DNA of 35,721 bases from a virus. Taxonomy: Duplodnaviria; Heunggongvirae; Uroviricota; Caudoviricetes. Below, piece after piece: positions 2,694 to 34,359 of the stretch; within the stretch, counting starts at the first letter, position 1, and every line of letters starts with the position of its first letter. Position numbers and translations under genes: made by a program. The stretch lies in IMG/VR virus record IMGVR_UViG_2874956758_000001; one strand, 5' to 3'. The notes beneath the pieces are model-generated. The model saw only the letters and a list, made by a program, of their open reading frames with translations, did no database searches and had not been told where the DNA came from.

Positions 2694-2965
2694 GTATTCG
2701 TATCGAAATTGGTGAACGTTATGTCGTTACCAGTGACAGCTTTCAGTTTATTCTCCACGAGAAAAAGAGAGCGGAAAGCGGTAAAAACGCCGGTCAGGAA
2801 TGGCTGGCGGTGGTTGGTTATTACCCGAAATTAATCCAGCTCGTTTCCGGCCTGATGCATCACGATATTCTGACCGGAAGCGCAAAGTCTTTTGCTGATT
2901 TAAACGCGCAGGTTGAGCAACTCAGCAAGCGTTGCTCAGAGGCTTTTGGCTCATATGGCCGTTAA
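2690..2965 (+). CDS. Early-operon hypothetical protein (P2 orf83 position)
   Basis: 91-aa ORF overlapping the start of gene A. Confidence 0.5.
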   Translation: MSIRIEIGERYVVTSDSFQFILHEKKRAESGKNAGQEWLAVVGYYPKLIQLVSGLMHHDILTGSAKSFADLNAQVEQLSKRCSEAFGSYGR

Positions 2966-5231
2966 AGCCTCCGGGCGTTTTGTCCCTCCGTCAGCATTTG
3001 CCGCAGGCATCGGTAAGATGTTTACCGGTGCTTATGCATGGAACGCACCACGCGAGGCTGTCGGGCGCGAAAGACCTCTTACACGTGATGAGATGCGTCA
3101 GGTGCAAGGTGTTTTATCCACGATTAACCGCCTGCCTTACTTTTTGCGCTCGCTGTTTACTTCACGCTATGACTACATCAGGCGCAATAAAAGCCCGGTG
3201 CACGGGTTTTATTTCCTCACATCCACTTTTCAGCGTCGTTTATGGCCGCGCATTGAGCGCGTGAATCAGCGCCATGAAATGAACACCGATGCGTCGTTGC
3301 TGTTTCTGGCAGAGCGCGACCAGTATGCGCGCCTGCCGGGAATGAATGACAAGGAGCTGAAAAAGTTTGCTGCCCGTATCTCATCGCAGCTTTTCATGAT
3401 GTATGAGGAACTCTGCGATGCCTGGGTGGATGCGCATGGCGAGAAAGAATCGCTGTTTACGGATGAGGCGCAGGCTCACCTCTATGGTCATGTTGCTGGC
3501 GCTGCACGTGCTTTCAATATTTCCCCTCTCTACTGGAAAAAATACCGTAAAGGACAGATGACCACGAGGCAGGCATATTCTGCCATTGCCCGTCTGTTTA
3601 ACGATGAGTGGTGGACTCATCAGCTTAAAGGCCAGCGTATGCGCTGGCATGAGGCGTTACTGATAGCTGTCGGGGAGGTCAATAAAGACCGTTCTCCTTA
3701 TGCCAGTAAACATGCCATTCGGGATGTGCGTGCGCGCCGCCAGGCAAATCTGGAATTTCTTAAATCGTGTGACCTTGAAAACAGGGAAACCGGCGAGCGC
3801 ATCGACCTTATCAGTAAGGTGATGGGCAGTATTTCTAATCCTGAAATTCGCCGGATGGAGCTGATGAACACCATTGCCGGTATTGAGCGTTACGCCCCCT
3901 CAGAGGGTGATGTGGGGATGTTTATCACGCTTACCGCGCCGTCAAAGTATCACCCGACACGTCAGGTTGGAAAAGGCGAAAATAAAACCGTCCAGCTTAA
4001 TCACGGCTGGAATGATGAGGCATTTAATCCAAAGGATGCGCAGCGTTATCTCTGCCGTATCTGGAGCCTGATGCGCACGGCATTCAAGGATAATGATTTA
4101 CAGGTCTACGGTTTGCGAGTCGTCGAGCCACACCACGACGGAACGCCGCACTGGCATATGATGCTTTTTTGTAATCCACGCCAGCGTAACCAGATTATCG
4201 AAATCATGCATCGCTATGCGCTCAAAGAGGATGGCGACGAAAGAGGAGCCGCGCGAAACCGTTTTCAGGCAAAACACCTTAACCGGGGCGGTGCTGCGGG
4301 ATATATCGCGAAATACATTTCAAAAAATATCGACGGCTATGCACTGGATGGTCAGCTCGATAACGATACCGGCAGACCGCTGAAAGATACTGCGGCGGCT
4401 GTTACCGCATGGGCGTCAACGTGGCGCATCCCGCAATTTAAAACGGTTGGCCTGCCGACAATGGGAGCTTACCGTGAGCTACGTAAATTGCCTCGCGGCG
4501 TCAGCATTGCTGATGAATTTGACGAACGCGTGGAGGCTGCACGCGCCGCCGCAGACAGTGGCGATTTTGCGCTGTATATCAGCGCGCAGGGCGGGGCAAA
4601 TGTCCCGCGCGATTGTCAGACTGTCAGGGTCGCCCGTAGCCCGTCGGATGACGTTAACGAATACGAGGAAGAAGTCGAGAGAGTGGTCGGCATTTACGCG
4701 CCGCATCTCGGCGCGCGTCATATTCATATCACCAGAACGACGGACTGGCGCATTGTGCCGAAAGTGCCGGTCGTTGAACCTTTGACTTTAAAAAGCGGCA
4801 TCGCCGCGCCTCGGAGTCCTGTGAATAACTGTGGAAAGCTCACCGGTGGTGATACTTCGTTACCGGCTCCCACACCTTCTGAGCACGCCGCAGCAGTGCT
4901 TAATCTGATTGATGACGGTGTTATCGAATGGAATGAGCCGGAGGTCGTGAAGGCGCTCCGGGGCGCATTAAAACACGGGCTGAGAACGCCAAACCGTCAG
5001 CAAAGAAACGGAAGCACGTTAAAACCACATGAAATTGCACCATCGGCCAGACTGAGCCGGTCGGAACGATTGCAAATCACCCGTATCCGCGTTGACCTTG
5101 CTCAGAATGGAATCTTGCCCCAGCGATGGGAGCTTGAGGCGCTGGCGCGTGGGGCAACCGTAAATTATGACGGGAAACAATTCACGTATCTGGCTGCTGA
5201 TGAGTGGCCGGGATTCTCAACAAACATATAA
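2955..5231 (+). CDS. A: Replication initiator A (rolling-circle HUH endonuclease)
   Basis: About 758 aa from ATG 2955 (MAVKASG); the ORF is open from 2913. HUH motif PHWHMMLF present; size and position match P2 gpA. Confidence 0.88.
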   Translation: MAVKASGRFVPPSAFAAGIGKMFTGAYAWNAPREAVGRERPLTRDEMRQVQGVLSTINRLPYFLRSLFTSRYDYIRRNKSPVHGFYFLTSTFQRRLWPRIERVNQRHEMNTDASLLFLAERDQYARLPGMNDKELKKFAARISSQLFMMYEELCDAWVDAHGEKESLFTDEAQAHLYGHVAGAARAFNISPLYWKKYRKGQMTTRQAYSAIARLFNDEWWTHQLKGQRMRWHEALLIAVGEVNKDRSPYASKHAIRDVRARRQANLEFLKSCDLENRETGERIDLISKVMGSISNPEIRRMELMNTIAGIERYAPSEGDVGMFITLTAPSKYHPTRQVGKGENKTVQLNHGWNDEAFNPKDAQRYLCRIWSLMRTAFKDNDLQVYGLRVVEPHHDGTPHWHMMLFCNPRQRNQIIEIMHRYALKEDGDERGAARNRFQAKHLNRGGAAGYIAKYISKNIDGYALDGQLDNDTGRPLKDTAAAVTAWASTWRIPQFKTVGLPTMGAYRELRKLPRGVSIADEFDERVEAARAAADSGDFALYISAQGGANVPRDCQTVRVARSPSDDVNEYEEEVERVVGIYAPHLGARHIHITRTTDWRIVPKVPVVEPLTLKSGIAAPRSPVNNCGKLTGGDTSLPAPTPSEHAAAVLNLIDDGVIEWNEPEVVKALRGALKHGLRTPNRQQRNGSTLKPHEIAPSARLSRSERLQITRIRVDLAQNGILPQRWELEALARGATVNYDGKQFTYLAADEWPGFSTNI

Positions 5232-5292
5232 AAATGATTGAAATGGTTGATTTTGCTTCCACTTGATGGTTGGTATCAGCAACTGATGGATC

Positions 5293-5553
5293 ATGCGGAA
5301 CTGCGTGGCAATCTTGCTTTGGAAGCATGTCATTATGACTAATGCATACATTACTAGCTATGCGTCCGGTTCCGCCATTGTACTCGAGCAAGAGTCTCCG
5401 GCTGATGGCTATTGTTTACAAATTATGGTCAAAGAGAATCTGACCCTCTACGAGTTGGTCGGAGGGACTGAGATCGTCAGTGATAACTGCAGCCGTATGG
5501 GAGAAATAAATAATCCCAACCGTCCATATTTCTACCTTCACGCGTGCCCATAA
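5293..5553 (+). CDS. Hypothetical small protein downstream of A
   Basis: 86-aa ORF (alternative start MTNAYI at 5335) followed by a hairpin; no recognisable motif. Confidence 0.3.
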   Translation: MRNCVAILLWKHVIMTNAYITSYASGSAIVLEQESPADGYCLQIMVKENLTLYELVGGTEIVSDNCSRMGEINNPNRPYFYLHACP

Positions 5554-5576
5554 TCTGTCACCACGTTGACCATAGA

Positions 5577-5620
5577 AAACCCCGCCGACGCTGAAACTCG
5601 CTTTCAGTGCTGGCGGGGTT
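5577..5620. terminator. GC-rich hairpin between the converging A-side ORF and the RT locus
   Basis: Imperfect inverted repeat AACCCCGCCGACGCTGAAA / TTTCAGTGCTGGCGGGGTT, with a T-run on the minus-strand side. Confidence 0.5.
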
Positions 5621-5873
5621 GAACAACGAGCTTGCGAGGCGTTAGGGATGTCGAAATTTCATATGACTGTTCGCTTTAATGCTTAACGAAGTCATGTTGA
5701 GTTAATAACATTGTTTCGTTAAGCGCTGTGTTCCTTGTCGAATAAGTTCACTTCTTCTGGTGTAATATCAGTATCCATTTCTTCGAATGCATCTAAATCC
5801 ACAATTTTTGTTTTTTTCAAAATTGATAGTATTTTCTGTTTGTTTTTATTTTTGGCTGAACCCGGAATCCACT

Positions 5874-6311
5874 CTACATCCCACAGGCCATCAATGGTAA
5901 ATGTTTTTTTTCCTTGAGTTCATCATTTATGCGTTGACATAGGGCTGTTTTGTAATCGCCTTCCCATTGTGTGTGTATCTTCCCTTGAACTCGTTGAAAC
6001 CAAATATCTAACATTTCAGTATTTGGTTGTTTACCTAGTTTACAATGAAGTTGTTGTAACTTGCCAAATTTGAGTTCATCGTCGTCATAAAGGAAGGTCA
6101 AGAGTTTTGCGAAAATAGCCATTCCCACTGGGTAGGTGGTTGGGTTTTTAGCCATGATGCTTGAAACAATTCCAAGCATTGCATCTAGTTGATGCCCACT
6201 ATTTGTGATCTTTTTCTTCCTAAATAATTTTCGCAAGAAACCATTTAAATATCTGACTGTAATTTTGGAGTTTTGATGTTTTAAAGAAAATAAATATATT
6301 GCATACAACAT
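5874..6311 (-). CDS. C-terminal fragment of the Abi-P2-like reverse transcriptase (helical C-terminal domain); frame continues from the upstream RT ORF across an A-run
   Basis: AT-rich 145-aa ORF; its frame is open upstream into the end of the RT ORF, and a third frame continues past its stop to about 5727. Confidence 0.55.
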   Translation of the reverse strand: MLYAIYLFSLKHQNSKITVRYLNGFLRKLFRKKKITNSGHQLDAMLGIVSSIMAKNPTTYPVGMAIFAKLLTFLYDDDELKFGKLQQLHCKLGKQPNTEMLDIWFQRVQGKIHTQWEGDYKTALCQRINDELKEKKHLPLMACGM

Positions 6312-6337
6312 TTTCTGTAGGGAGTTGAACGACCCTT

Positions 6338-7264
6338 CTATAATATATTCTTTTTTGCTGATTTAAGGGAGTGAAGAATGATGTCGTCATGTAGTTCTGT
6401 TTTTCTTGAGTTTAAATCAAGCCCAAACTCACCTAAGACCTCAACCAAACACTTTGAGATTTTGTCCAAATCATCTTTACTGCTTGAAAATATTCGATAA
6501 TCATCTCTGTAGCGAACTACTTTGTAATCCGTTATTTTTTGCTCTTCGGTTTTTTTTCTTAGCTGTAAATCAATTTCGCCTAAAATTAATTCGGCAAATG
6601 TATCCATCAACGTACTACCCAATGGTATTCCGTTTGTCTGATTACTCATCATCATCTGGATATGAGTGTCAATCAATCGTCCTGGGTTATTGTTATTTTC
6701 TTTCTTTTTGGCCTCTTCTTTTGAGATGAATACCCATTCAAAGCTATGAGTGTAAATAGAAGGGTAGAAGTTTGAAATGTCTGTGCTGAACATGAACTCA
6801 TACTCAAGAGCCAATGAAAGACTTTTTTGTTCAAAATCTTCCCACCAGTTTAAAACAGATGCAGCTACGTTTGAGGTGTTCTTTTTGCTCACTGGGGTAC
6901 TTGAGCATAAAAAAAGATCATTAGACTCAAACTCTCTAAATTTATTCCTTATAGCATTCCAGTTGGAAGGGGATGTAATAAGTTTACAAAAATACACGTA
7001 GTACAGAGGATTAATTAGTGTTATTCGTCGCCAGCTATATAAGCCATCTTTGCTGACTAAAACCTCGTAATTTATATTCTTCCCCATCAATGACTTGGAG
7101 TCAGGTTGGAAGTTGATTTTACCTTCATCTATCGCGGAGTTGATTTCTTCAAGCAAGGAAGAAAAATCGACATAACTGGGTAGCTCCAGAGTAGTGTATG
7201 AATCATGCTGCAGAAAATACTTAAGCGCTCTACCAGTAGTTAATTCATAAATCTTTTTCATAAT
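6338..7264 (-). CDS. Reverse transcriptase, Abi-P2 / UG-Abi class (defence-associated RT), N-terminal and catalytic part
   Basis: RT motifs seen directly: FMFSTDISNFYPSIY, GIPLGSTLMDTF, VVRYRDDYRIF (YxDD), LDLNSRKTEL. Probable start MKKIYEL at 7264; the ORF is open to 7387. AT-rich compared with phage core genes. Confidence 0.75.
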   Translation of the reverse strand: MMKKIYELTTGRALKYFLQHDSYTTLELPSYVDFSSLLEEINSAIDEGKINFQPDSKSLMGKNINYEVLVSKDGLYSWRRITLINPLYYVYFCKLITSPSNWNAIRNKFREFESNDLFLCSSTPVSKKNTSNVAASVLNWWEDFEQKSLSLALEYEFMFSTDISNFYPSIYTHSFEWVFISKEEAKKKENNNNPGRLIDTHIQMMMSNQTNGIPLGSTLMDTFAELILGEIDLQLRKKTEEQKITDYKVVRYRDDYRIFSSSKDDLDKISKCLVEVLGEFGLDLNSRKTELHDDIILHSLKSAKKNIL

Positions 7265-7467
7265 TAGTGATTTCTTCTTAAGTTGCGCACAAATAACTAC
7301 CTGTTTTCTATCATGATAACGATGCGAATGCGAGCAATTCAGGAAGTGCATTACTCTGCATCGAAGCGCACGCAAGTCAGAGAACAATAACTGCCTTGCG
7401 ACATCAGGACTGGCGCGCTAGTTGAGTGGTCATGCAACTGCATTAAAACCGCCCCATGAAGCGGGCG

Positions 7468-7486
7468 GGCGAGGCGGGGAAAGCAC
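7468..7486. other. cos: P2-type cohesive end (cos) sequence GGCGAGGCGGGGAAAGCAC
   Basis: Exact 19-nt string matching my recollection of the P2/186 cohesive end, in the expected position between the A-side variable locus and portal gene Q. Confidence 0.7.
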
Positions 7487-7628
7487 TGCGCGCTGGCGGT
7501 GGTGCTGATTTTATTTTTTCAGCGTCTGAGCGCGTCGTGATGGCGTTTAGATTGTGTGCCGGGGCGTTGGTTTGTCTGCGGGCTGTTTTGCGCGGAGGTG
7601 AGCGTGTGAGGGCGTGATGACGGGGTGT

Positions 7629-7650
7629 AAAAAAGCCGCCCGCAGGCGGC
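7629..7650 (-). terminator. Rho-independent terminator downstream of Q
   Basis: GCCGCC-CGCA-GGCGGC hairpin followed by TTTTTT on the minus strand, directly after the Q stop. Confidence 0.6.
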
Positions 7651-7655
7651 GATGT

Positions 7656-8690
7656 TCAGCCGTTGTCAGTGTCCAGTGAGTAGTTTTTAAAGCGGATGAC
7701 CTCCTGACCGAGCCAGCCGTTTATTTCCCGAATCCTGTCCTGTAACGGGATAAGCTCATTGCGGACAAAGACCTTTGCCACTTTCTCAATATCACCCAGC
7801 GACCCGACGTTCTCCGGCTTGCCGCCCATCAACTGAAAGGGGATGCGGTGCGCGTCCAGCAGGTCAGCGGCGCTGGCTTTTTTGATATTAAAAAAATCGT
7901 CCTTCGTTGCCACTTCACTGAGTGGGATAATTTTAATGCCGTCGGCTTTCCCCTGTGGGGCATAGAGAAACAGGTTTTTAAAGTTGTTGCGGCCTTTCGA
8001 CTTCACCATGTTTTCGCGGAGCATTTCGATATCGTTGCGATCCTGCACGGCATCGGTGACGTACATGATGTATCCGGCATGTGCGCCGTTTTCGTAATAC
8101 TTGCGGCGGAACAGCGTGGCTGATTCATTCAGCCAGGCAGAGTTAAGGGCGCTGAGATATTCCGGCAGGCCGTACAGCTCCTGATTGATATCCGGCTCCA
8201 GCAGGTGAAACACGGAGCCGGGCGTGAAAGGTGTTGGCTCGTTGAAGGACGGCACCCACCAGTAAATATCTTCTTCCACACCACGGCGGGTATATTTTGC
8301 CGGTGAGGTTTCCAGTCTGATGACCTTACCGGTGGTGCTGTAACGCTTTTCCAGAAACGCATTACCGAACACCAGAAAATCCAGCACAAAGCGGCTGAAA
8401 TCCTGCTGGGAAAGCCACGGATGCGGGATAAATGTCGAGGCCAGAATATTACGTTTGACGTAAATCGGGGAGCTGTGATGCACGGCAGCACGCAGGCTTT
8501 TTGCCAGACCGGTAAAGCTGACCGGTGGCTCATACCATCTGCCGTTACTGATGCACTCGACGTAATCCAGAATGTCACGGCGATCGAGTACCGGCACCGG
8601 CTCACCAAAGGTGAATGCCTCCATTTTCGGGGCGCTGGCGGTCATTGTTTTTGCCGCTGGTCGCGGTGTTTTCCCTTTTTTCTTGCTCAT
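7656..8690 (-). CDS. Q: Portal protein
   Basis: 344 aa, the size and position of P2 gpQ next to cos and upstream of P. Confidence 0.88.
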   Translation of the reverse strand: MSKKKGKTPRPAAKTMTASAPKMEAFTFGEPVPVLDRRDILDYVECISNGRWYEPPVSFTGLAKSLRAAVHHSSPIYVKRNILASTFIPHPWLSQQDFSRFVLDFLVFGNAFLEKRYSTTGKVIRLETSPAKYTRRGVEEDIYWWVPSFNEPTPFTPGSVFHLLEPDINQELYGLPEYLSALNSAWLNESATLFRRKYYENGAHAGYIMYVTDAVQDRNDIEMLRENMVKSKGRNNFKNLFLYAPQGKADGIKIIPLSEVATKDDFFNIKKASAADLLDAHRIPFQLMGGKPENVGSLGDIEKVAKVFVRNELIPLQDRIREINGWLGQEVIRFKNYSLDTDNG

Positions 8691-9208
8691 CAGTAAAACT
8701 CCAGAATGGTGGATGTCAGCGGAGTGCTGATACCGGCGGTGAGTGGCTCATTTAACAGGGCGTGCATGGTCGCCCAGGCGAGGTCGGCGTGGCTGGCTTC
8801 CTCGCTGCGGCTGGCCTCATAGGTGGCGCTGCGTCCGCTGCTGGTCATGGTCTTGCGGATAGCCATAAACGAGCTGGTGATGTCGGTGGCGCTGACGTCA
8901 TATTCCAGACAGCCACGGCGGATAACGTCTTTTGCCTTGAGCACCATTGCGGTTTTCATTTCCGGCGTGTAGCGGATATCGCGAGCGGCGGGATAGAACG
9001 AGCGCACGAGCTGGAACACACCGACACCGAGGCCGGTGGCATCAATCCCGATGTATTCGACGTTGTATTTTTCGGTGAGTTTGCGGATGGATTCTGCCTG
9101 GGTGGCAAAGTCCATGCCTTTCCACTGGTGACGCTCAAGTATTCTGAATTTGCCACCGGCCACCACCGGCGGTGCCAGCACCACGCATCCGGCGCATAGT
9201 CTTCCCAT
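8690..9208 (-). CDS. P: Terminase large subunit gpP, C-terminal (nuclease domain) portion, in a different frame from the N-terminal portion
   Basis: This frame reads GKFRILERHQWKGMDFATQAESIRKLTEKYNVEYIGIDATGLGVG; it overlaps the N-terminal ORF, whose translation degenerates into low-complexity sequence in the overlap. Confidence 0.7.
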   Translation of the reverse strand: MGRLCAGCVVLAPPVVAGGKFRILERHQWKGMDFATQAESIRKLTEKYNVEYIGIDATGLGVGVFQLVRSFYPAARDIRYTPEMKTAMVLKAKDVIRRGCLEYDVSATDITSSFMAIRKTMTSSGRSATYEASRSEEASHADLAWATMHALLNEPLTAGISTPLTSTILEFY

Positions 9209-10389
9209 TCTTCCAGCGTGTCGACCATGCAGCGTTGCAGCTCCTCGAACGGGAACACCGATGCCTTGTCGTCAACAAATTCACACATGAACAGGTTTTT
9301 AAAATCGTCGGCGCTGTTTTCGCGTTTGAGCTGCTCAATGTCGAACAGCGTGCAGCCGCCTTTCAGGGCGTCCTCAATGGTGACAATCTGCCGCCACTGG
9401 CCGTCTGCACAGAGAAGACCTCCGGCAAGGGCGTTATGACTGACGTCGATTTCCACGCGTTCGGCGGCGCTGGCGCGTCCCCGGTTGAACAGTTCACCCG
9501 ACCAGAACGGGTAGGCGTCGTGCGCCAGCGTGGACGGGGTGGAGAAATAGGTCGAGCGCAGGTGACTCTGTGAGGCCATACCTGATGCCACCTTACGCAG
9601 TACCTGAAAATTCGGGATCCAGAAAATCTCATCGACGTAAAGGTCGCCGTTATGGCTCTGTGCGGTGTTGGAGTTGGTGCCGAGAAAAATCAGTTTTGCG
9701 CCGTTATTGCCCAGGACAATCGGGTCACCGGTCAGGTCAACGTCAACCAGCCGGGCAAAGGCGATGATGTATTCACGGAACACATACGCCTGCGTTTTAC
9801 TGGCCGACAGAAAAATCTGGTTATGACCTGTTTTCAGGGCGCGCAGCAGCGCCTCGCGGGAAAAATAAAACGTTGCGCCAATCTGGCGGGATTTCAGGAT
9901 ATCGCGGATGCGGTGCTCAAGCCCGGCGCGATACCAGTGCAACTGATAGTCGAAAGACTGCTCAAAGAAAATCTGCTCCAGCTTTTCGATGGCCTCGTCA
10001 CTGAAAAAATTCTTTTTCGGTTTGCGCCGCCCGCCTTTGTTGCGGTTAGCGACGTTCGGATTAAGGTCTGCCTCGTTGCCGGTCTGACTGTAACGGTTTA
10101 CCCGTGCCAGTCGTTCAATCTGGCGTCCCAGCAGGTCAATTTCCTTGAAGTCACCGCCGGTTTTCTGCGGTTTGATGATGAGCTGGGTCAGTCGTGCTTC
10201 CAGACTCATTTCGACACGGCTGATGGGGGCAACGCTGTCCCAGCCGTCGCGCTGTTTCCAGCTCTGCACCGTCGGGCGTTTCATCTGCAACATGGCGGCA
10301 ATCTGCGGCACGGAAAACCCCTGCCAGTACAGCAGCGCCGCCTGACGACGCGGGTCGTGTAAAAGAGTGGTGTCTGTGGTGATGGTCAT
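8956..10389 (-). CDS. P: Terminase large subunit gpP (ATPase), N-terminal portion; frame lost near 9165-9195
   Basis: Probable start MTITTD at 10389 with GAGGT ribosome-binding site. Protein-like up to WEDYAPDA, then WCWHRRWW and Pro/Ser-rich nonsense. Combined span 8690-10389 is about 566 codons, against roughly 590 aa recalled for P2 gpP. Confidence 0.75.
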   Translation of the reverse strand: MTITTDTTLLHDPRRQAALLYWQGFSVPQIAAMLQMKRPTVQSWKQRDGWDSVAPISRVEMSLEARLTQLIIKPQKTGGDFKEIDLLGRQIERLARVNRYSQTGNEADLNPNVANRNKGGRRKPKKNFFSDEAIEKLEQIFFEQSFDYQLHWYRAGLEHRIRDILKSRQIGATFYFSREALLRALKTGHNQIFLSASKTQAYVFREYIIAFARLVDVDLTGDPIVLGNNGAKLIFLGTNSNTAQSHNGDLYVDEIFWIPNFQVLRKVASGMASQSHLRSTYFSTPSTLAHDAYPFWSGELFNRGRASAAERVEIDVSHNALAGGLLCADGQWRQIVTIEDALKGGCTLFDIEQLKRENSADDFKNLFMCEFVDDKASVFPFEELQRCMVDTLEEWEDYAPDAWCWHRRWWPVANSEYLSVTSGKAWTLPPRQNPSANSPKNTTSNTSGLMPPASVSVCSSSCARSIPPLAISATRRK

Positions 10390-10562
10390 GAATACCTCGC
10401 CGTGATGAATACACGGCAAGGCTACTGAGTCGCGCCCTGCGATTCGCTAAGGTGCTGTTGTGTCAGTGATAAGCCATCCGGGACTGATGGCGGAGGATGC
10501 GCATCGTCGGGAAACTGATGCCGACATGTGACTCCTCTAATCACTATTCAGGACTCCTGACA

Positions 10563-11417
10563 ATGGCAAAAAAAGTCTCAAAATTCTTTCGTATCGGCGT
10601 TGAGGGTGACACCTGTGACGGGCGTGTCATCAGTGCGCAGGATATTCAGGAAATGGCCGAAACCTTTGACCCGCGAGTCTATGGTTGCCGCATTAACCTG
10701 GAACATCTGCGCGGCATCCTGCCTGACGGTATTTTTAAGCGTTATGGCGATGTGGTCGAACTGAAGGCCGAAAAGATTGACGATGATTCGGCGCTGAAAG
10801 GCAAATGGGCGCTGTTTGCGAAAATCACCCCGACCGATGACCTTATCGCGATGAACAAGGCCGCGCAGAAGGTCTACACCTCAATGGAAATTCAGCCGAA
10901 CTTTGCCAACACCGGCAAATGTTATCTGGTGGGGCTGGCCGTCACCGATGACCCGGCAAGCCTCGGCACGGAATACCTGGAATTCTGCCGCACGGCAAAA
11001 CACAACCCCCTGAACCGCTTCAAATTAAGCCCTGAAAACCTGATTTCAGTGGCAACGCCTGTTGAGCTGGAATTTGAAGACCTGCCTGAAACCGTGTTCA
11101 CCGCCCTGACCGAAAAGGTGAAATCCATTTTTGGCTGCAAACAGGCCAGCGATGACGCCCGTCTGAATGACGTGCATGAAGCGGTGACCGCTGTTGCTGA
11201 ACATGTGCAGGAAAAACTGAGTGCCACTGAGCAGCGCCTCGCTGAGATGGAAACCGCCTTTTCTGCACTTAAGCAGGAGGTGACTGACAGGGCGGATGAA
11301 ACCAGCCAGGCATTCACCCGCCTGAAAAACAGTCTCGACCACACCGAAAGTCTGACCCAGCCGCGCCGCAGCAAGGCCACCGGCGGTGGCGGTGACGCCC
11401 TGATGACGAACTGCTGA
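10563..11417 (+). CDS. O: Capsid scaffolding protein
   Basis: 284 aa from ATG 10563 (MAKKVSKFF), the size of P2 gpO; divergent from P. Confidence 0.85.
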   Translation: MAKKVSKFFRIGVEGDTCDGRVISAQDIQEMAETFDPRVYGCRINLEHLRGILPDGIFKRYGDVVELKAEKIDDDSALKGKWALFAKITPTDDLIAMNKAAQKVYTSMEIQPNFANTGKCYLVGLAVTDDPASLGTEYLEFCRTAKHNPLNRFKLSPENLISVATPVELEFEDLPETVFTALTEKVKSIFGCKQASDDARLNDVHEAVTAVAEHVQEKLSATEQRLAEMETAFSALKQEVTDRADETSQAFTRLKNSLDHTESLTQPRRSKATGGGGDALMTNC

Positions 11418-11475
11418 CCGGCGTCAGTCAGTCCGGGAAAACCTTCACGATTAACCCTTAATTTCAGGAAAAACT

Positions 11476-12549
11476 ATGCGCCAGGAAACCCGCTTTAAAT
11501 TTAATGCCTACCTGTCCCGTGTTGCCGAACTGAACGGCATCGACGCCGGTGATGTGTCGAAAAAATTCACCGTTGAACCGTCGGTCACCCAGACCCTGAT
11601 GAACACCATGCAGGAGTCCTCTGATTTTCTGACCCGCATCAACATTGTGCCGGTCAGCGAAATGAAAGGGGAAAAAATTGGTATCGGTGTCACCGGCTCC
11701 ATCGCCAGCACCACCGACACCGCCGGTGGCACCGAGCGTCAGCCGAAGGACTTCTCGAAGCTGGCGTCTAACAAGTACGAATGCGACCAGATTAACTTCG
11801 ATTTTTATATCCGCTACAAAACGCTGGACCTGTGGGCGCGTTATCAGGATTTCCAGCTCCGTATCCGTAACGCCATTATCAAACGCCAGTCCCTTGATTT
11901 CATCATGGCCGGTTTTAACGGCGTGAAGCGTGCCGAAACCTCTGACCGCAGCAGCAATCCGATGCTGCAGGATGTGGCGGTCGGCTGGCTGCAGAAATAC
12001 CGCAATGAAGCCCCGGCGCGTGTGATGAGCAAGGTCACTGACGAGGAAGGGCACACCACCTCTGAGGTCATCCGCGTGGGTAAGGGCGGTGATTATGCCA
12101 GCCTCGATGCACTGGTGATGGATGCGACCAACAACCTGATTGAGCCGTGGTATCAGGAAGACCCTGACCTTGTGGTGATTGTGGGGCGTCAGCTGCTGGC
12201 GGACAAATATTTCCCCATCGTCAACAAGGAGCAGGACAACAGCGAAATGCTGGCCGCTGACGTCATCATCAGCCAGAAACGCATCGGTAACCTGCCGGCG
12301 GTACGCGTCCCGTACTTCCCGGCGGATGCGATGCTCATCACGAAGCTGGAAAACCTGTCCATCTACTACATGGATGACAGCCATCGCCGCGTGATTGTGG
12401 AAAACCCGAAACTCGACCGCGTGGAGAACTACGAGTCAATGAACATTGATTACGTGGTGGAAGACTACGCCGCCGGTTGTCTGGTGGAAAAAATTAAGGT
12501 CGGTGATTTCTCCACGCCGGCTAAGGCGACCGCAGAGCCGGGAGCGTAA
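11476..12549 (+). CDS. N: Major capsid protein
   Basis: 357 aa, the size and position of P2 gpN. Confidence 0.9.
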   Translation: MRQETRFKFNAYLSRVAELNGIDAGDVSKKFTVEPSVTQTLMNTMQESSDFLTRINIVPVSEMKGEKIGIGVTGSIASTTDTAGGTERQPKDFSKLASNKYECDQINFDFYIRYKTLDLWARYQDFQLRIRNAIIKRQSLDFIMAGFNGVKRAETSDRSSNPMLQDVAVGWLQKYRNEAPARVMSKVTDEEGHTTSEVIRVGKGGDYASLDALVMDATNNLIEPWYQEDPDLVVIVGRQLLADKYFPIVNKEQDNSEMLAADVIISQKRIGNLPAVRVPYFPADAMLITKLENLSIYYMDDSHRRVIVENPKLDRVENYESMNIDYVVEDYAAGCLVEKIKVGDFSTPAKATAEPGA

Positions 12550-12552
12550 CCG

Positions 12553-13296
12553 ATGACGAGTCCCGCACAGCGCCACATGATGCGGGTCTCGGCAGCGATG
12601 ACCGCGCAGCGGGAAGCCGCCCCGCTGCGACATGCAACTGTCTATGAGCAGATGCTGGTTAAGCTCGCCGCAGACCAGCGCACACTGAAAGCGATTTATT
12701 CAAAAGAGCTGAAGGCCGCGAAAAAACGCGAACTGCTGCCGTTCTGGTTGCCGTGGGTGAACGGCGTGCTGGAGCAGGGCAAAGGTGCACAGGATGACAT
12801 TCTGATGACGGTCATGCTGTGGCGTCTGGATACCGGCGATATTGCCGGTGCGCTGGAGATTGCCCGTTATGCCCTGAAGTACGGTCTGACCATGCCGGGT
12901 AAACACCGCCGCACCCCGCCGTACATGTTCACCGAGGAGGTGGCGCTCGCGGCCATGCGCGCTCACGCTGCCGGTGAATCCGTGGATATCCGCCTGCTGA
13001 CGGAAACCCTTGAACTGACCGCCGCTGCTGACATGCCTGATGAAGTGCGCGCAAAGCTGCACAAAATCACCGGTCTGTTTCTGCGTGACGCTGGTGATGC
13101 CGCAGGTGCGCTGGCGCACCTGCAACGTGCGACACAGCTCGACTGTCAGGCAGGCGTCAAAAAAGAGATTGAACGACTGGAGCGGGAGCTGAAACCGAAG
13201 CCGGAGCCGCAGCCCAAAGCGGCCACCCGTACCCCGCGTAAGACCCGGAGCGTGACACCGGCAAAATGTGGACGCCCGAAAAAGAAAGCCAGTTAA
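12553..13296 (+). CDS. M: Terminase small (endonuclease) subunit
   Basis: 247 aa, the size and position of P2 gpM. Confidence 0.85.
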   Translation: MTSPAQRHMMRVSAAMTAQREAAPLRHATVYEQMLVKLAADQRTLKAIYSKELKAAKKRELLPFWLPWVNGVLEQGKGAQDDILMTVMLWRLDTGDIAGALEIARYALKYGLTMPGKHRRTPPYMFTEEVALAAMRAHAAGESVDIRLLTETLELTAAADMPDEVRAKLHKITGLFLRDAGDAAGALAHLQRATQLDCQAGVKKEIERLERELKPKPEPQPKAATRTPRKTRSVTPAKCGRPKKKAS

Positions 13297-13395
13297 CAAC
13301 CGAATGCGCCCCGCGCCAGGGCGGCACGCCGGTCAGTGAGGGTGAATCACCTGACGCTGTACCGGCGTCCACCGCCCGACTTTTCAGAGGTAGTC

Positions 13396-15888: not shown

Positions 15889-16318
15889 TGCCGTCACGGT
15901 GCTGAAAACTAACCCCGATATGCTGCGGATATTCGTGGATAACGGGAGTATTGCCTCCACACTGGCGGCGTCGCTGTCATTCGAAAAGCGTTACACGCTC
16001 AATGTGATTGTGACCGACTTTACCGGTAATTTTGACCTGCTCATCGTGCCGGTGCTGGTGTGGCTGCGGGAAAATCAGCCCGACATCATGACCACCGACG
16101 AAGGTCAGAAAAAAGGTTTCACGTTTTATGCAGACATCAACAATGACAGCAGCTTTGATATCAGCATCAGCCTGATGCTGACCGAGCGAACGCTGGTCAG
16201 TGAGGTTGACGGTGCGCTGCATGTGAAGAATATCCCGGAACCTCCGACGCCGGAGCCAGTCAATCGCCCGATGGAGCTTTATATCAATGGTGAACTGGTG
16301 AGCAAGTGGGATGAATGA
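15851..16318 (+). CDS. R: Tail completion protein R
   Basis: 155 aa, the size and position of P2 gpR. Confidence 0.8.
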   Translation: MLKPDSLRRALTDAVTVLKTNPDMLRIFVDNGSIASTLAASLSFEKRYTLNVIVTDFTGNFDLLIVPVLVWLRENQPDIMTTDEGQKKGFTFYADINNDSSFDISISLMLTERTLVSEVDGALHVKNIPEPPTPEPVNRPMELYINGELVSKWDE

Positions 16319-16517
16319 GTTTAAGCGTTTTGAAGACCGGCTGACCGGACTGATTGAATCGCTGTCACCGTCTGGGCGTCGGCGACTGAGTGCAGAACTG
16401 GCGAAACGTCTGCGGCAGAGTCAGCAGCGTCGGGTGATGGCACAGAAAGCCCCGGACGGCACACCCTACGCACCACGCCAGCAGCAGAGCGCCAGAAAAA
16501 AAGACCGGTCGCGTTAA
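16311..16517 (+). CDS. S: Tail completion protein S, N-terminal portion; frame breaks at an A7 run near 16494-16500
   Basis: 68-aa ORF ending ...SARKKDRSR; removing one A from the run would read ARKKTGRVKRKMFAKLITS and join the next ORF. Combined span 16311-16764 is about 150 codons, the size of P2 gpS. Confidence 0.7.
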   Translation: MNEFKRFEDRLTGLIESLSPSGRRRLSAELAKRLRQSQQRRVMAQKAPDGTPYAPRQQQSARKKDRSR

Positions 16518-16524
16518 GCGAAAA

Positions 16525-16764
16525 ATGTTTGCGAAACTTATCACCAGTCGTTTTTTGCATATCCGCGCCAGCCCTGAACAGGCATCAATGGAGTTTTACG
16601 GCGGGAAGTCACCGAAAATCGCCAGTGTGCATCAGTTCGGTCTGTCGGAAGAAACCCGGAAAGACGGTAAGAAAAATGATTATCCGGCGCGTCCTCTGCT
16701 CGGCTTTACCGGTGAGGATGTGCAGATAATTGAAGAGATTATCCTGGCTCACCTCGACCGTTAG
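16525..16764 (+). CDS. S: Tail completion protein S, C-terminal portion
   Basis: 79-aa ORF in the frame that the upstream S fragment would enter after a 1-nt change in the A-run. Confidence 0.7.
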   Translation: MFAKLITSRFLHIRASPEQASMEFYGGKSPKIASVHQFGLSEETRKDGKKNDYPARPLLGFTGEDVQIIEEIILAHLDR

Positions 16765-21499: not shown

Positions 21500-21901
21500 G
21501 TGGGAACCAAAGTGTCAGATATGCAGAAAAATGTGACTCCCGGCAGGCGAAAAGGCTGCCCTAATTATCCTCCCGAATTTAAACAGCAGCTCGTTGCTGC
21601 CTCCTGTGAACCCGGGATATCCATCTCAAAACTTGCTCTTGAAAATGGCATTAACGCCAATCTGTTGTTCAAATGGCGACAACAATGGCGCGAGGGAAAG
21701 CTGCTATTACCTTCTTCAGAGAGCCCCCAGCTACTTCCTGTGACTCTCGATGCAGCTGCCGAACAGCCAGAATCGCTCGCAGAGGACCCGGAAACCCTCA
21801 GTATCAGCTGTGAGGTAACGTTCCGGCACGGGACGCTCCGCTTCAATGGCAATGTCAGCGAAAAGCTCCTGACTCTGCTGATACAGGAACTGAAGCGATG
21901 A
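21500..21901 (+). CDS. tnpA: IS66-family accessory protein TnpA (HTH)
   Basis: 133-aa first ORF of the element; exact start uncertain. Confidence 0.7.
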   Translation: MGTKVSDMQKNVTPGRRKGCPNYPPEFKQQLVAASCEPGISISKLALENGINANLLFKWRQQWREGKLLLPSSESPQLLPVTLDAAAEQPESLAEDPETLSISCEVTFRHGTLRFNGNVSEKLLTLLIQELKR

Positions 21902-22245
21902 TCCCGTTACCTTCCGGGACCAAAATTTGGCTGGTTGCCGGTATCACCGATATGAGAAATGGCTTCAACGGTCTGGCTGCGAAAGTACAGACGGCGCTGA
22001 AAGACGATCCCATGTCCGGCCATGTTTTCATTTTCCGGGGCCGCAGCGGCAGTCAGGTTAAACTGCTGTGGTCCACCGGTGACGGACTGTGCCTCCTGAC
22101 CAAACGGCTGGAGCGTGGGCGCTTCGCCTGGCCGTCAGCCCGTGATGGCAAAGTGTTCCTTACGCAGGCGCAGCTGGCGATGCTGCTGGAAGGTATCGAC
22201 TGGCGACAGCCTAAGCGGCTGCTGACCTCCCTGACCATGCTGTAA
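21898..22245 (+). CDS. tnpB: IS66-family Orf2 / TnpB
   Basis: 115 aa; start overlaps the tnpA stop; conserved IS66 Orf2-like sequence ([11 protein letters not shown]...[24 protein letters not shown]). Confidence 0.8.
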
Positions 22246-22294
22246 ATCTCTTTATCCTGGTTGTCACAGAATAAGCCCGGTAAAATACGGGCTT

Positions 22295-23827
22295 ATGAAC
22301 GACATCTCTTCTGACGACATCTTCCTGCTGAAACAGCGCCTGGCCGAACAGGAGATCCACGCCCTGCAGGAAAAGCTGAGCAACCGGGAGCGCGAAATAG
22401 ACCATCTGCAGGCGCAGCTGGATAAACTCCGCCGGATGAACTTCGGCAGTCGTTCCGAAAAAGTCTCCCGCCGTATCGCACAAATGGAAGCCGATCTGAA
22501 CCGGCTTCAGAAAGAGAGCGATACGCTGACTGGTAGGGTGTATGACCCGGCAGTACAGCGTCCGTTGCGTCAGACCCGCACCCGTAAGCCGTTCCCTGAA
22601 TCACTACCCCGTGACGAAAAGCGACTGTTGCCTGCGGCGCCGTGCTGCCCGAACTGCGGCGGTTCACTGAGCTATCTGGGCGAGGATACCGCCGAACAGC
22701 TGGAGTTGATGCGTAGTGCCTTCCGGGTTATCCGGACGGTACGGGAAAAACATGCCTGTACTCAGTGCGATGCCATCGTGCAGGCACCTGCACCTTCGCG
22801 GCCCATCGAGCGGGGTATCGCCGGACCGGGGCTGCTGGCCCGCGTGCTGACCTCGAAGTATGCAGAGCACACCCCGCTGTATCGCCAGTCAGAAATATAC
22901 GGCCGGCAAGGTGTGAAGCTGAGCCGTTCACTGCTGTCGGGCTGGGTGGATGCATGCTGCCGGCTGCTGTCTCCGCTGGAAGAGGCGCTTCATGGCTATG
23001 TCATGACTGACGGCAAACTCCATGCTGATGATACCCCGGTCCAGGTACTGATGCCGGGTAATAAGAAGACGAAGACCGGGCGGTTGTGGGCGTATGTTCG
23101 TGATGACCGCAATGCCGGGTCAGCGTTGGCACCTGCAGTGTGGTTCGCTTACAGCCCGGACAGAAAAGGCATCCATCCGCAGACTCATCTTGCTTGCTTC
23201 AGCGGTGTGCTGCAAGCGGATGCGTACGCCGGGTTCAACGAGCTGTACCGCAATGGTGGGATAACGGAAGCTGCCTGCTGGGCTCATGCCCGCCGAAAGA
23301 TCCACGATGTGCACGTCCGCATCCCGTCAGCACTGACGGAAGAAGCCCTGGAGCAGCTCGGTCAGTTGTACGCCATAGAGGCGGATATAAGGGGAATGCC
23401 GGCAGAGCAGCGGCTTGCTGAACGTCAGCGAAAAACGAAACCGCTGTTGAAATCCCTGGAAAGCTGGTTGCGTGAAAAGATGAAGACCCTGTCGCGACAC
23501 TCAGAGTTGGCGAAGGCGTTCGCGTACGCACTTAACCAGTGGCCGGCACTGACGTACTATGCGAACGATGGCTGGGTGGAAATCGACAACAACATCGCTG
23601 AAAATGCCCTGCGGGCGGTCAGTCTGGGTCGTAAAAACTTCCTGTTCTTCGGCTCTGACCATGGTGGTGAGCGGGGAGCGCTACTGTACAGCCTGATCGG
23701 GACGTGCAAACTGAATGACGTGGATCCAGAAAGCTACCTTCGCCATGTGCTTGGCGTCATAGCAGACTGGCCGGTCAACCGGGTCAGCGAACTGCTTCCG
23801 TGGCGCATAGCACTGCCAGCTGAATAA
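22295..23827 (+). CDS. tnpC: IS66-family transposase TnpC
   Basis: 510 aa; N-terminal coiled coil, Cys cluster (CPNCG...CTQC), DDE-type core; ends just inside the right inverted repeat. Confidence 0.85.
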
Positions 23828-23889
23828 CACATCCCCGTCAATACGGCCCTCGCTGTACGCTTACGTATAACGTGGCGCAGGTATAATTT

Positions 23890-24509: not shown

Positions 24510-25415
24510 CTATATTTCCAGACATCTGTTATCACTTAACCCATTACAAGCCCGCTGCCGCAGATATTCCCGTGGCGAGCGATAACCCAGCGCACTATGC
24601 GGATGCCATTCGTTATAATGCTCGAACGCCTCTGCAAGGTTCTTTGCTGCCGTTAACCCGTCTGGTTTGGGCATGATACTGATGTAGTCACGCTTTATCG
24701 TTTTCACGAAGCTCTCTGCTATTCCGTTACTCTCCGGACTCCGCACCGCCGTGTTCTTCGGTTCAAGTCCCAACATCCGGGCGAACTGGCGTGTTTCATT
24801 AGCCCGGTAGCATGAACCATTATCCGTCAGCCACTCCACTGGAGACGACGGAAGATCGTTGCCGAAGCGGCGTTCCACCGCTCCCAGCATGACGTCCTGT
24901 ACTGTTTCACTGTTGAAGCCGCCGGTAGTCACCGCCCAGTGCAGTGCCTCACGATCACAGCAGTCCAGCGCGAACGTGACACGCAGTCTCTCTCCGTTAT
25001 CACAGCAGAACTCGAACCCGTCAGAGCACCATCGCTGATTGCTTTCTTTCACGGCCACTCTGCCTGTATGTGCCCGTTTCGATGGCGGTACAGCAGGTTT
25101 TCGCTCAAGCAACAGCGCATTCTGGCGCATGATCCGGTAAACACGTTTGGCATTGATCGCAGGCATACCATCAAGTTCTGCCTGTCTGCGAAGCAGCGCC
25201 CATACCCGACGATAACCATACGTGGGCAGCTCTCCGATAACATGGTGTATACGGAGAAGCACATCCGTATCATCAGTGTGACGACTGCGGCGGCCATCCA
25301 TCCAGTCATCGGTTCGTCTGAGAATGACGTGCAACTGCGCACGCGACACCCGGAGACAACGGCTGACTAAGCTTACTCCCCATCCCCGGGCAATAAGGGC
25401 GCGTGCGCTATCCAC
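24510..25415 (-). CDS. insD: IS2 transposase OrfB (DDE integrase-like); expressed as an InsCD fusion by -1 frameshift
   Basis: 301 aa, recognised as IS2 InsD. Confidence 0.9.
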
Positions 25416-25738
25416 TTTTTTGCCCGTCCATATTCAACGGCTTCTTTGAGGAGTTCATTTTCCATCGTTTTCTTGCCGAGCAGGCGCTGGAGTTCTTTAA
25501 TCTGCTTCATGGCGGCAGCAAGTTGAGAGGCAGGAACAACCTGTTCTCCGGCGGCCACAGCAGTAAGACTTCCTTCCTGGTATTGCTTACGCCAGAGAAA
25601 TAACTGGCTGGCTGCTACACCATGTTGCCGGGCAACGAGGGAGACCGTCATCCCCGGTTCAAAGCTCTGCTGAACAATTGCGATCTTTTCCTGTGTGGTA
25701 CGCCGTCTGCGTTTCTCCGGCCCTAAGACATCAATCAT
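25373..25738 (-). CDS. insC: IS2 OrfA (HTH regulator)
   Basis: 121 aa from [13 protein letters not shown]; overlaps the insD start. Confidence 0.9.
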
Positions 25739-25901
25739 CTGTTCTCCAATGACTAGTCTAAAAACTAGTATTAAGACTATCACTTATTTAAGTGATACTG
25801 GTTGTCTGGAGATTCAGGGGGCCAGTCTAGCAGGTGCCAGATGCATTTGTTATTCTTCATTGAATTGAGCAGTATCCTTAACAGGAACTCTGAATACATA
25901 A

Positions 25902-26540
25902 ATGAAGATGAAAAACATGTCTGAAGTGTTGACCCAAGAAAAGCTTATTTTTGTTGCCCAGAGACTAAAGGCCCTCGCGCAGTCAGGCCTGACCTATTCA
26001 AAAGACGTCTTTGACAAGGAACGCTATGAAGCCTTGCGTGAAATTGCCGCTGGACTGCTGAGTTCGCAGTTTGATATTAGCCGCAATGATTTGTTTCATG
26101 TATCGGAAACGGGTTACGCGACGCCCAAAACAGATGTGCGTGCGTTTATCCTGCGTAATAATCGTATTCTGATGGTGAAAGAGGCTGCAGATGGATTATG
26201 GAGTCTTCCTGGCGGATGGGCAGATGTTGGAGATACACCTTCTGAAGCTGTGCGTCGAGAGGTCGAAGAAGAAACCGGATTAAAAGTCAGAGTGACTAAA
26301 CTATTGGGAGTTTGGGATCGTAATCTTCACGGCCATCCGCCTTTACCCTGGCATGTTTACAAGCTGATTTTTCTCTGTGAAGAAGTAGGTGGCAGCCTGT
26401 CAATCAGCCATGAGTCACTCGATGCTGATTTTTTTGATGTCAACGACCTGCCTGAATTGTCGCTTTCAAGAATTGTGCCTGAGCAGATTGCTGTCAGCCT
26501 GAGAGTAGCGAAAGGTGATGAAAAAACATGGTTTGATTAA
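25902..26540 (+). CDS. NUDIX hydrolase with an N-terminal helical extension
   Basis: NUDIX box GGWADVGDTPSEAVRREVEEETG (Gx5Ex7REUxEExGU pattern) in the C-terminal half of a 212-aa protein; first gene of a two-gene cassette in the G-FI variable locus. Confidence 0.8.
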   Translation: MKMKNMSEVLTQEKLIFVAQRLKALAQSGLTYSKDVFDKERYEALREIAAGLLSSQFDISRNDLFHVSETGYATPKTDVRAFILRNNRILMVKEAADGLWSLPGGWADVGDTPSEAVRREVEEETGLKVRVTKLLGVWDRNLHGHPPLPWHVYKLIFLCEEVGGSLSISHESLDADFFDVNDLPELSLSRIVPEQIAVSLRVAKGDEKTWFD

Positions 26541-26563
26541 CTTTCTTCTGCAACCATTAAGGA

Positions 26564-27208
26564 ATGGCAATGATATTCAACGCTAAGGGTTTTTTATTCG
26601 ATATGGACGGTACGCTGGTTGATTCAACAGCCGTAGTGGAAAGCGTCTGGAGAGATTTTTGTGCAGAATACGGTCTTGATTCTCAGGCTGTGATTGCTTA
26701 CGCACACGGGCGGCAAACGATTGATACACTAACGCATTTTATTGGTGCAGGTGAGAAAACCAATAAAATCGCGGCCTCACTCGAAGAGGTTGAAATCAAC
26801 ACGACAGAAGGCGTTACTGAAGTAAAAGGGGCCGCTGCACTCTTATCAAAACTGCCACCGGATAGCTGGGCACTTGTCACTTCTGCAGGCAGAATGCTTG
26901 CCGAAAACAGGATGAAAGCGGCTAATCTCCCCTTACCCATAGTAATGGTGTGTGCAGAAGATGTAATGACGGGAAAACCAAGTCCCGAGGGTTACATCAA
27001 AGCAGCTTTGGCTTTGGGCCTTGAGCCTGGTGAATGCGTGGTATTTGAGGATGCATCTGCGGGTATAAAAGCAGGGCTGGCAAGTGGAGCTTCGGTAATA
27101 GCTGTTCAGCCTGACGCTCTGGGATCATCTGAAGCCCATGCCGTCAGCGAACTGTCTGACATTATGGTCAAGATTTCCGGAGAACGTTTCAATATCATCT
27201 GTGGTTAA
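26564..27208 (+). CDS. HAD-superfamily hydrolase (subfamily IA phosphatase / beta-phosphoglucomutase-like)
   Basis: HAD motif I FDMDGTLVDS, motif II LVTSAG, motif IV FEDASAGIKAG; 23 bp downstream of the NUDIX gene. True start may be the second ATG at 26570. Confidence 0.8.
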   Translation: MAMIFNAKGFLFDMDGTLVDSTAVVESVWRDFCAEYGLDSQAVIAYAHGRQTIDTLTHFIGAGEKTNKIAASLEEVEINTTEGVTEVKGAAALLSKLPPDSWALVTSAGRMLAENRMKAANLPLPIVMVCAEDVMTGKPSPEGYIKAALALGLEPGECVVFEDASAGIKAGLASGASVIAVQPDALGSSEAHAVSELSDIMVKISGERFNIICG

Positions 27209-32624: not shown

Positions 32625-33787
32625 TGCTGGATGCGCTGACATTTGATGCAGGCAGTACGCTGACGCCGGATTACATGCTGATGCTCGACAGCAGGGATAT
32701 TACCGGCAATATCAGCGACCGTCTGATGAGCATGACCCTGACGGATAACCGGGGCTTTGAGGCTGACCAGCTTGATATTGAACTGAACGACGCCGACGGG
32801 CAGGTAGGGCTACCGGTTCGTGGCGCTGTCCTGACGGTGTATATCGGCTGGAAAGGTTTTGCCCTGGTATGCAAAGGGAAATTTACCGTTGATGAGGTTG
32901 AACACCGGGGAGCACCGGATGTGGTCACCATCCGCGCCCGGAGTGCAGATTTTCGCGGGACGCTCAATTCCCGCCGTGAAGGCTCCTGGCATGACACCAC
33001 GCTCGGTGCGATTGTTGAGGCGATAGCCTCCCGTAACAGGCTGGAAGCCAGTGTCGCGCCGTCACTGGCAGGAATTAAAATCCCGCACATCGACCAGTCG
33101 CAGGAGTCTGATGCGAAATTCCTGACCCGTCTTGCAGAACGCAACGGCGGTGAGGTGTCGGTAAAAATGGGAGAACTGTTGTTTCTCAAAGCGGGGCAGG
33201 GGGTGACGGCCAGCGGTAAAAAAATCCCGCAGATTACCATCACCCGCAGCGACGGCGACCGTCATCATTTTGCGATTGCTGACCGTGGAGCTTACACCGG
33301 CGTAACGGCAAAGTGGTTACACACCAAAGACCCGAAGCCGCAAAAGCAGAAGGTAAAACTGAAACGCAAAAAGAAAGAAAAACACCTGCGCGCACTGGAG
33401 CACCCGAAAGCGAAACCGGTCACGCAGAAGAAAGCGCCAAAAGTACCGGAAGCGCGCGAAGGTGAATACATGGCCGGTGAAGCTGACAACGTTTTTGCCC
33501 TGACTACGGTATATGCCACGAAAGCACAGGCCATGCGCGCCGCTCAGGCGAAGTGGGATAAACTGCAACGGGGCGTTGCGGAGTTCTCCATCAGCCTTGC
33601 CACTGGTCGTGCTGATATTTACACGGAAACACCGGTCAGAGTGTCAGGCTTTAAGCGCGTCATAGACGAGCAGGACTGGACAATCACTAAGGTGACACAT
33701 TTTCTGAATAATAGCGGCTTCACGACGTCCTTGGAGCTTGAGGTCAGGCTTTCTGATGTGGAGTACGAAACAGAAGATGATGAGTAA
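32624..33787 (+). CDS. D: Tail protein D (late control D)
   Basis: 387 aa, the size and position of P2 gpD. Confidence 0.85.
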   Translation: MLDALTFDAGSTLTPDYMLMLDSRDITGNISDRLMSMTLTDNRGFEADQLDIELNDADGQVGLPVRGAVLTVYIGWKGFALVCKGKFTVDEVEHRGAPDVVTIRARSADFRGTLNSRREGSWHDTTLGAIVEAIASRNRLEASVAPSLAGIKIPHIDQSQESDAKFLTRLAERNGGEVSVKMGELLFLKAGQGVTASGKKIPQITITRSDGDRHHFAIADRGAYTGVTAKWLHTKDPKPQKQKVKLKRKKKEKHLRALEHPKAKPVTQKKAPKVPEAREGEYMAGEADNVFALTTVYATKAQAMRAAQAKWDKLQRGVAEFSISLATGRADIYTETPVRVSGFKRVIDEQDWTITKVTHFLNNSGFTTSLELEVRLSDVEYETEDDE

Positions 33788-34187: not shown

Positions 34188-34214
34188 TAAAAAATAAGCC
34201 CGTGTAAGGGAGAT
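34188..34214. other. attR: Prophage right attachment core (P2-type 27-bp att core AAAAAATAAGCCCGTGTAAGGGAGATT)
   Basis: String matches my recollection of the P2 att core; lies between ogr and the first host gene, where attR is expected. Confidence 0.65.
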
Positions 34215-34359
34215 TACACAGGCTAAGGAGGTGGTTCCTGGTACAGCTAGCATTTTATGGGTTATGTTTTTCAGCGAAATGGATGATAACCTTAATAAAT
34301 GCAGCTGTATGTGATCGGTTTCTAAGAATTTTCCATCCGGGAAAAATAATCGAAATTAA

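Follow-up and report, generated by a model that had tools for sequence, protein, structure and literature searches.

Bacteriophage P2 and the satellite P4 have in common a "core cos packaging signal" (PMC9122126, Rousset et al. 2022); for P4, PMC2231350 gives a "55-bp cos sequence" whose cohesive ends are 19 bp long. Beside cos, in the stretch from gpA to gpQ, lies a defense hotspot counted 18,150 times across E. coli genomes (PMC9122126), and PMC9508834 (citing Odegrip 2006) places the genes for Abi-P2 of P2-EC30 and P2-EC58 in a variable region. The orf570 product of P2-EC30 is known to protect against phage T5 and to carry out protein-primed, untemplated DNA synthesis (PMC9508834).

The stretch of DNA analyzed here (35,721 nt; the window) carries a site of this kind beside a reverse transcriptase (RT) locus of the Abi-P2 family (Table 1). 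We consider it, with a probability of roughly 0.9, to be the genuine cos of a P2-like (Peduovirus) prophage, lying in its canonical place and retained as a relic in a decaying element.

Table 1. Features of the cos region and of the genes discussed in the text (window coordinates)
Feature	Position	Strand	Basis
A, replication endonuclease, left border of hotspot	2955..5231	+	97% identical to P2 A, residues 1-756 of 761
P2-EC58 ORF85 homologue, hypothetical, 86 aa	5293..5553	+	AM157368 annotation
Abi-P2 reverse-transcriptase pseudogene, hotspot cargo	5719..7261	-	PADLOC, Pfam, DNA identity
cos core	7441..7495		alignment with P2, P4, and 186
G+C-rich hairpin followed by TTTTAAT, putative terminator-like	7449..7468	-	consensus scan; abuts right-end side of cos
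cos cohesive end	7468..7486	+	P2 identity; starts of linear records
tQ, rho-independent terminator of P-Q operon	7635..7650	-	terminator scan; aligns with P2 tQ 160-181
Q, portal protein, intact, 344 aa	7656..8690	-	98.5% identical to P2 Q over 343/344 aa; Pfam Phage_portal
P, large terminase pseudogene	8690..10389	-	DNA alignment with P2 P; tblastn; Pfam
M, small terminase subunit, intact, 247 aa	12553..13296	+	97.6% identical to P2 M, full length; Pfam Phage_term_smal

The cos Site

The 19-nt cohesive-end sequence GGCGAGGCGGGGAAAGCAC agrees at 19 of 19 positions with the P2 features annotated as "cosL; left cohesive end" (1-19) and "cosR; right cohesive end" (33575-33593; NC_001895). An earlier note on this DNA had taken the 19-mer for the P2 cohesive end and proposed a comparison with the P2 cos region as the check; the identification is borne out by that comparison, both over the 19-mer and over the surrounding core (below), and the annotated 186 cos agrees with GGCGAGGCGGGGAAAGCAC at 17 of 19 bases. 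P4 also has the identical 19-mer. A pattern search that permitted up to three mismatches returned a single match in the 35.7-kb window and none in 100 dinucleotide-preserving shuffles, the chance expectation being 0.

Phage genomes give the same boundary. With window 7388-7655 as the query against 50,697 phage records, blastn matched 115 P2-like phage records, and base 1 of linear virion records (fiAA91-ss, where cosL is annotated, S164, R18C, HQ103, P24A7b, and others) corresponds to query base 81, which is window position 7468. Alignment with joined phage ends delimits a 55-bp block conserved in the window, P2, P4, and 186; identity over this core is 54/55 with P2, 49/55 with P4, and 47/55 with 186. 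The sole mismatch with P2 is at 7456 (A here, G in P2); 186 also has A at this position, so the difference is natural variation. On the geometry of the 186 annotation, the cuts are predicted to fall 5' of 7468 on the top strand and after 7486 on the bottom strand, which would leave 5' overhangs of 19 nt.

Three marks of a P2-type (Peduoviridae) cos are present here: the 19-mer, a core of about 55 bp, and a position downstream of tQ, between a right-end accessory locus and Q. The cis site looks functional and would presumably be competent; the statement in the earlier note that the packaging substrate is in place holds at the level of sequence.

The interval 7388-7655 is intergenic, extending from the RT locus to the stop codon of Q (7656), and contains both the cos core and the tQ hairpin; cos thus follows closely on the end of the P-Q operon, which is directed toward it. 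DNA homology to P2 stops at 5222 (the end of A) and restarts at about 7441; to the right of 7495 the window is approximately 95% identical to P2 through tQ and Q. P4 departs from the window directly to the right of the core, and no P4 genes adjoin cos. The P2-like right flank, from which P4 diverges at once, indicates that this cos is the phage's own and not that of a satellite.

On the other side of the core, the 30 nt toward the right end (7411-7440) match 186 and P4 (…AGTGGTCATGCAACTGCATT…) and not P2, so the conserved flank is longer than the comparison with P2 suggests. P2 and P4 share the sequence of the hairpin that abuts cos on this side, and 186 has part of it.

A 53-aa open reading frame (ORF) on the plus strand (7456-7617), recorded as a "hypothetical protein" in some phage records, was rejected as a real gene: two separate 1-bp insertions relative to P2 lie inside it (7570 and 7615), so the frame is not conserved, and its best Pfam match (VacA2, 17.3 bits) is below the cut-off of 27, with no other Pfam match. 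A search at Rfam gathering thresholds found no structured RNA in 7388-7655, the only one in the window being the CyaR RNA of the right flank, and a consensus scan of 7262-7467 found no sigma-70 promoter for the RT.

Gene Order and the Cargo beside cos

A tblastn search of the window with all P2 proteins gave the order int (5' part)-C-cox-orf78-B-orf80-83-A, followed by a variable region and then by cos-Q-P-O-N-M-L...D-ogr; around cos, the local order is A, ORF85, the Abi-P2 RT, cos, tQ, Q, and P. The genes M, Q, A, B, cox, and C and the capsid genes are present at full length, and int is represented by residues 1-130, the part inside the window at its left edge.

At the other end, P2 homology ends at the attR core (about 34215), which adjoins yegQ/trhP, and the flank runs on to 35721. 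The end of the homology is overlapped by a full-length CyaR/RyeE sRNA (34192-34277, minus strand; Rfam 100.7 bits). Compared with complete E. coli genomes, the yegQ flank reaches no more than 98.9% identity. The yegQ/trhP site is the chromosomal location of ogrK, the cryptic P2 remnant of E. coli K-12.

The variable cargo region (5223-7440, about 2.2 kb) replaces the orf91-tin-old segment of P2; it lies between gpA and gpQ and adjoins cos, as does the cargo of the hotspot. The earlier note had set cos between an RT locus and Q and had likened the place of the RT, at the right end of the virion genome, to that of tin/old. Both genes map where this arrangement puts them, and the RT locus fills the A-to-cos interval that in P2 holds orf91, tin, and old. 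Of 5426 complete E. coli genomes, 64 share the RT-cos-Q arrangement (98-99% identity, with at least 80% of the query covered). The ORF85 homologue had no match in Pfam or PADLOC.

The RT belongs to the Abi-P2 family by several measures. Its two pieces match the PADLOC AbiP2 profile with E-values of 1.7e-120 and 3.5e-25, Pfam RVT_1 is matched with 42.1 bits (cut-off 29.6), and a YRDD (YxDD) motif is found at residue 251 of the first, 307-aa piece. The DNA is 99% identical to the P2-EC58 gene annotated as "putative reverse transcriptase, ORF544" (AM157368) and to intact E. coli genes of 514-515 aa. Relative to P2-EC58 and to an intact 515-aa E. coli copy, the gene has lost one base at each of two places: a T7 run is shortened to T6 after 6350, and a C3 run to C2 after 5911. 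These two frameshifts split the product into 307-aa and 145-aa pieces and a tail, and the C-terminal domain is detached; the relatives are 514-544 aa long. The RT domain and its YxDD motif are thus present, and the single polypeptide of about 515-545 aa with a C-terminal helical domain, characteristic of Abi-P2, is absent from the window. The RT is a pseudogene of the Abi-P2 family and not a working member.

Terminase and Portal Genes

The earlier note had also suspected that P, which encodes the large terminase subunit, is frame-broken, and the lesion can now be placed. The gene is 98% identical to P2 P at the DNA level but without 73 bp corresponding to P2 P nt 1195-1267. The deletion junction lies inside CGGCGC at window 9190-9195, where one of two GCGCCG copies is left; loss of 73 bp between such repeats is the signature of slippage or of a microhomology deletion.

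The resulting product has 477 aa, comprising native residues 1-400 and 77 out-of-frame residues before a stop at 8956, and tblastn splits the gene between frames -1 and -3. Within residues 1-400 lie the HTH domain and the ATPase domain, Terminase_6N. Of the RNaseH-like nuclease domain (Terminase_6C; P2 residues 413-571), the beginning is missing and the remainder is out of frame; Pfam matched Terminase_6N to the 477-aa product, and its sole match to Terminase_6C fell in a detached ORF of 172 aa. With the nuclease domain damaged in this way, the element would be unable to cut cos with its own terminase or to package itself. The detached 172-aa nuclease ORF could possibly have a role.

Decay Elsewhere in the Prophage

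The tail-completion gene S (16311-16764, plus strand) is frameshifted at 16496, where an A7 run has gained one A, and a 68-aa fragment is left. Two insertion sequence (IS) elements lie in the tail-fibre and Z/fun region. One, of the IS66 family, has ORFs matching HTH_Tnp_1, TnpB_IS66, and DDE_Tnp_IS66 and occupies approximately 21500-23830 (its ends are approximate), where it separates H (tail fibre) from G (fibre assembly); the two genes are 3 nt apart in P2, and the insertion is probably polar on G. The other, of the IS3 family (24510-25783, minus strand), is followed by a NUDIX gene (25902-26540) and a HAD-hydrolase gene (26564-27208), and the whole block (24510-27208) fills the Z/fun hotspot between G and FI.

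In the tape-measure gene T, a 2-bp insertion and a 2-bp deletion lie 12 nt apart (30633-30645) relative to P2 and an E. coli prophage; about four codons are recoded, and the gene is not broken.

The earlier note, which spoke of RT cargo, missed that the RT is itself a pseudogene, and it likewise missed the S frameshift and the two IS elements. Since terminase, S, and the Abi-P2 gene are pseudogenes and IS elements have entered the tail-fibre and Z/fun genes' neighborhood, neither an active phage nor an active defense system should be scored at this locus.

A Model for the Site and Its Alternatives

The substrate of P2 terminase is the circular monomer, which it nicks on the two strands at points 19 nt apart. 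A working P2 prophage would excise and replicate as a circle, and the gpM/gpP terminase would recognize the core of about 55 bp and introduce its staggered nicks; position 7468 would then become the left end, by Q (and so Q-P-O...), and position 7486 the right end, by the RT cargo. Part of this terminase mechanism is echoed for P4 (PMC2231350). In the present element, cos would be cleavable only if a related helper phage gave terminase in trans and if the element could still excise.

The alternative that survives best, itself quite unlikely, makes a way of life of this dependence: the defective prophage would be a helper-dependent, satellite-like element, packaged by a heteroimmune P2-like phage that gives gpP and gpS in trans. 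The intact cis site and the full-length M, Q, capsid, A, B, cox, and C genes are consistent with such a role, and, as P4 shows, a foreign replicon needs no more than the 55-bp core to be packaged by P2 terminase (PMC2231350; PMC9122126). However, there is no sign of selection for such a role; the lesions resemble ordinary decay in an IS-rich genome, and of int only the part noted above lies inside the window. P2-type prophages, moreover, are not SOS-inducible and need derepression. The element also exceeds the wild type in length (an estimated 34.9 kb with its two IS elements, versus 33.6 kb for P2), which might affect packaging even with a helper.

A related conjecture, which we regard as unlikely, takes in two outcomes: that the intact cos lets a dead Shigella prophage be mobilized as a satellite-like passenger, a heteroimmune P2-like phage giving terminase and tail functions, or that incoming P2-like phages are hindered in their packaging by the ATPase-only fragment of gpP (residues 1-400).

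It is highly improbable that the prophage is fully functional and uses cos with its own terminase, the lesions in P, S, and RT being errors of sequencing or assembly. Three of the lesions are 1-bp indels in homopolymer runs (T7 to T6, C3 to C2 next to T8, and A7 to A8), a typical error signature; the 73-bp deletion, in contrast, has a 6-bp direct repeat at its borders and does not bear the mark of an error. Furthermore, the exact 477-aa P, 307+145-aa RT, and 68-aa S products recur in several independent runs and assemblies (ERR5984615, SRR364092, SRR364093, ERR13763635, and GCA_026134905.1) at 99.99-100% identity, with 0 gaps where compared. The 477-aa P was called on eight contigs from several runs and the 68-aa S fragment on nine, including GCA_026134905.1, and a contig of ERR5984615 aligns to window 5956-13389 without a gap at 99.987% identity and shows the same 307+145-aa split of the RT. 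Because independent assemblies reproduce the lesions in all three genes, these are mutations fixed in a lineage, and sequencing error was rejected as the source of the frameshifts.

The 307-aa RT fragment is labelled "Shigella dysenteriae" in one source (WP_284515066.1), a label in keeping with the IS load and with a yegQ flank that is at best 98.9% identical to E. coli. Among the 5426 complete E. coli genomes, the best match to the window is 98.0% identical over 11.8 kb, and the matches are always split at the P deletion. The 477-aa truncated P falls in a 90%-identity cluster whose representative is a 344-aa portal protein and whose other named members listed are all portal proteins; this looks like an oddity of database clustering and not like biology.

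That the 19-mer is a chance match, or part of a P4-like satellite, is close to negligible: P4 does have the identical 19-mer, but none is expected by chance even with three mismatches permitted, and the single match in the window, whose right flank follows P2 where P4 diverges, also disposed of a second cos or a P4-type cos as candidates.

Comparison with Known Systems

A retained cos in a decaying P2-like prophage remains our preferred reading. Its placement gives the would-be virion chromosome a direction and confirms the position of the RT in the well-known cos-proximal defense hotspot, and it matters little beyond annotation. The hotspot and Abi-P2 are already in the literature, so the view that the RT lies at the right end, as tin/old does, is right and already known; a cos in the "TO" (tin/old) hotspot with Abi-P2 is a correct, ordinary, and documented arrangement, of which P2-EC58 is a published example.

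Set against the P2 cos (NC_001895), the site is alike in its 19-nt end, in 54 of the 55 core positions, in its spacing to tQ and Q, and in its orientation to the P-Q operon; it differs in that 7411-7440 resembles 186 and P4 and in that the cognate gpP is truncated. The cores of P4 and 186 are less close, at the identities given above, and both resemble the window in the left flank (7411-7440); unlike the present site, 186 has a different base at 2 of 19 overhang positions, and P4 has an unrelated flank to the right of the core.

The "TO region" of P2-EC58 and P2-EC30 (Odegrip et al. 2006; AM157368) is the closest counterpart of the cargo, with 99% DNA identity over ORF85 and the RT and the same position between A and cos; the published RT genes have an unbroken frame (ORF544; in RefSeq E. 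coli, 514-515 aa), whereas the RT in the window is frame-broken. Like the hotspot of Rousset et al. 2022 (PMC9122126), the region is bounded by gpA and gpQ, adjoins cos, and holds an anti-phage system; unlike the systems described there, the defense gene in the window is inactivated.
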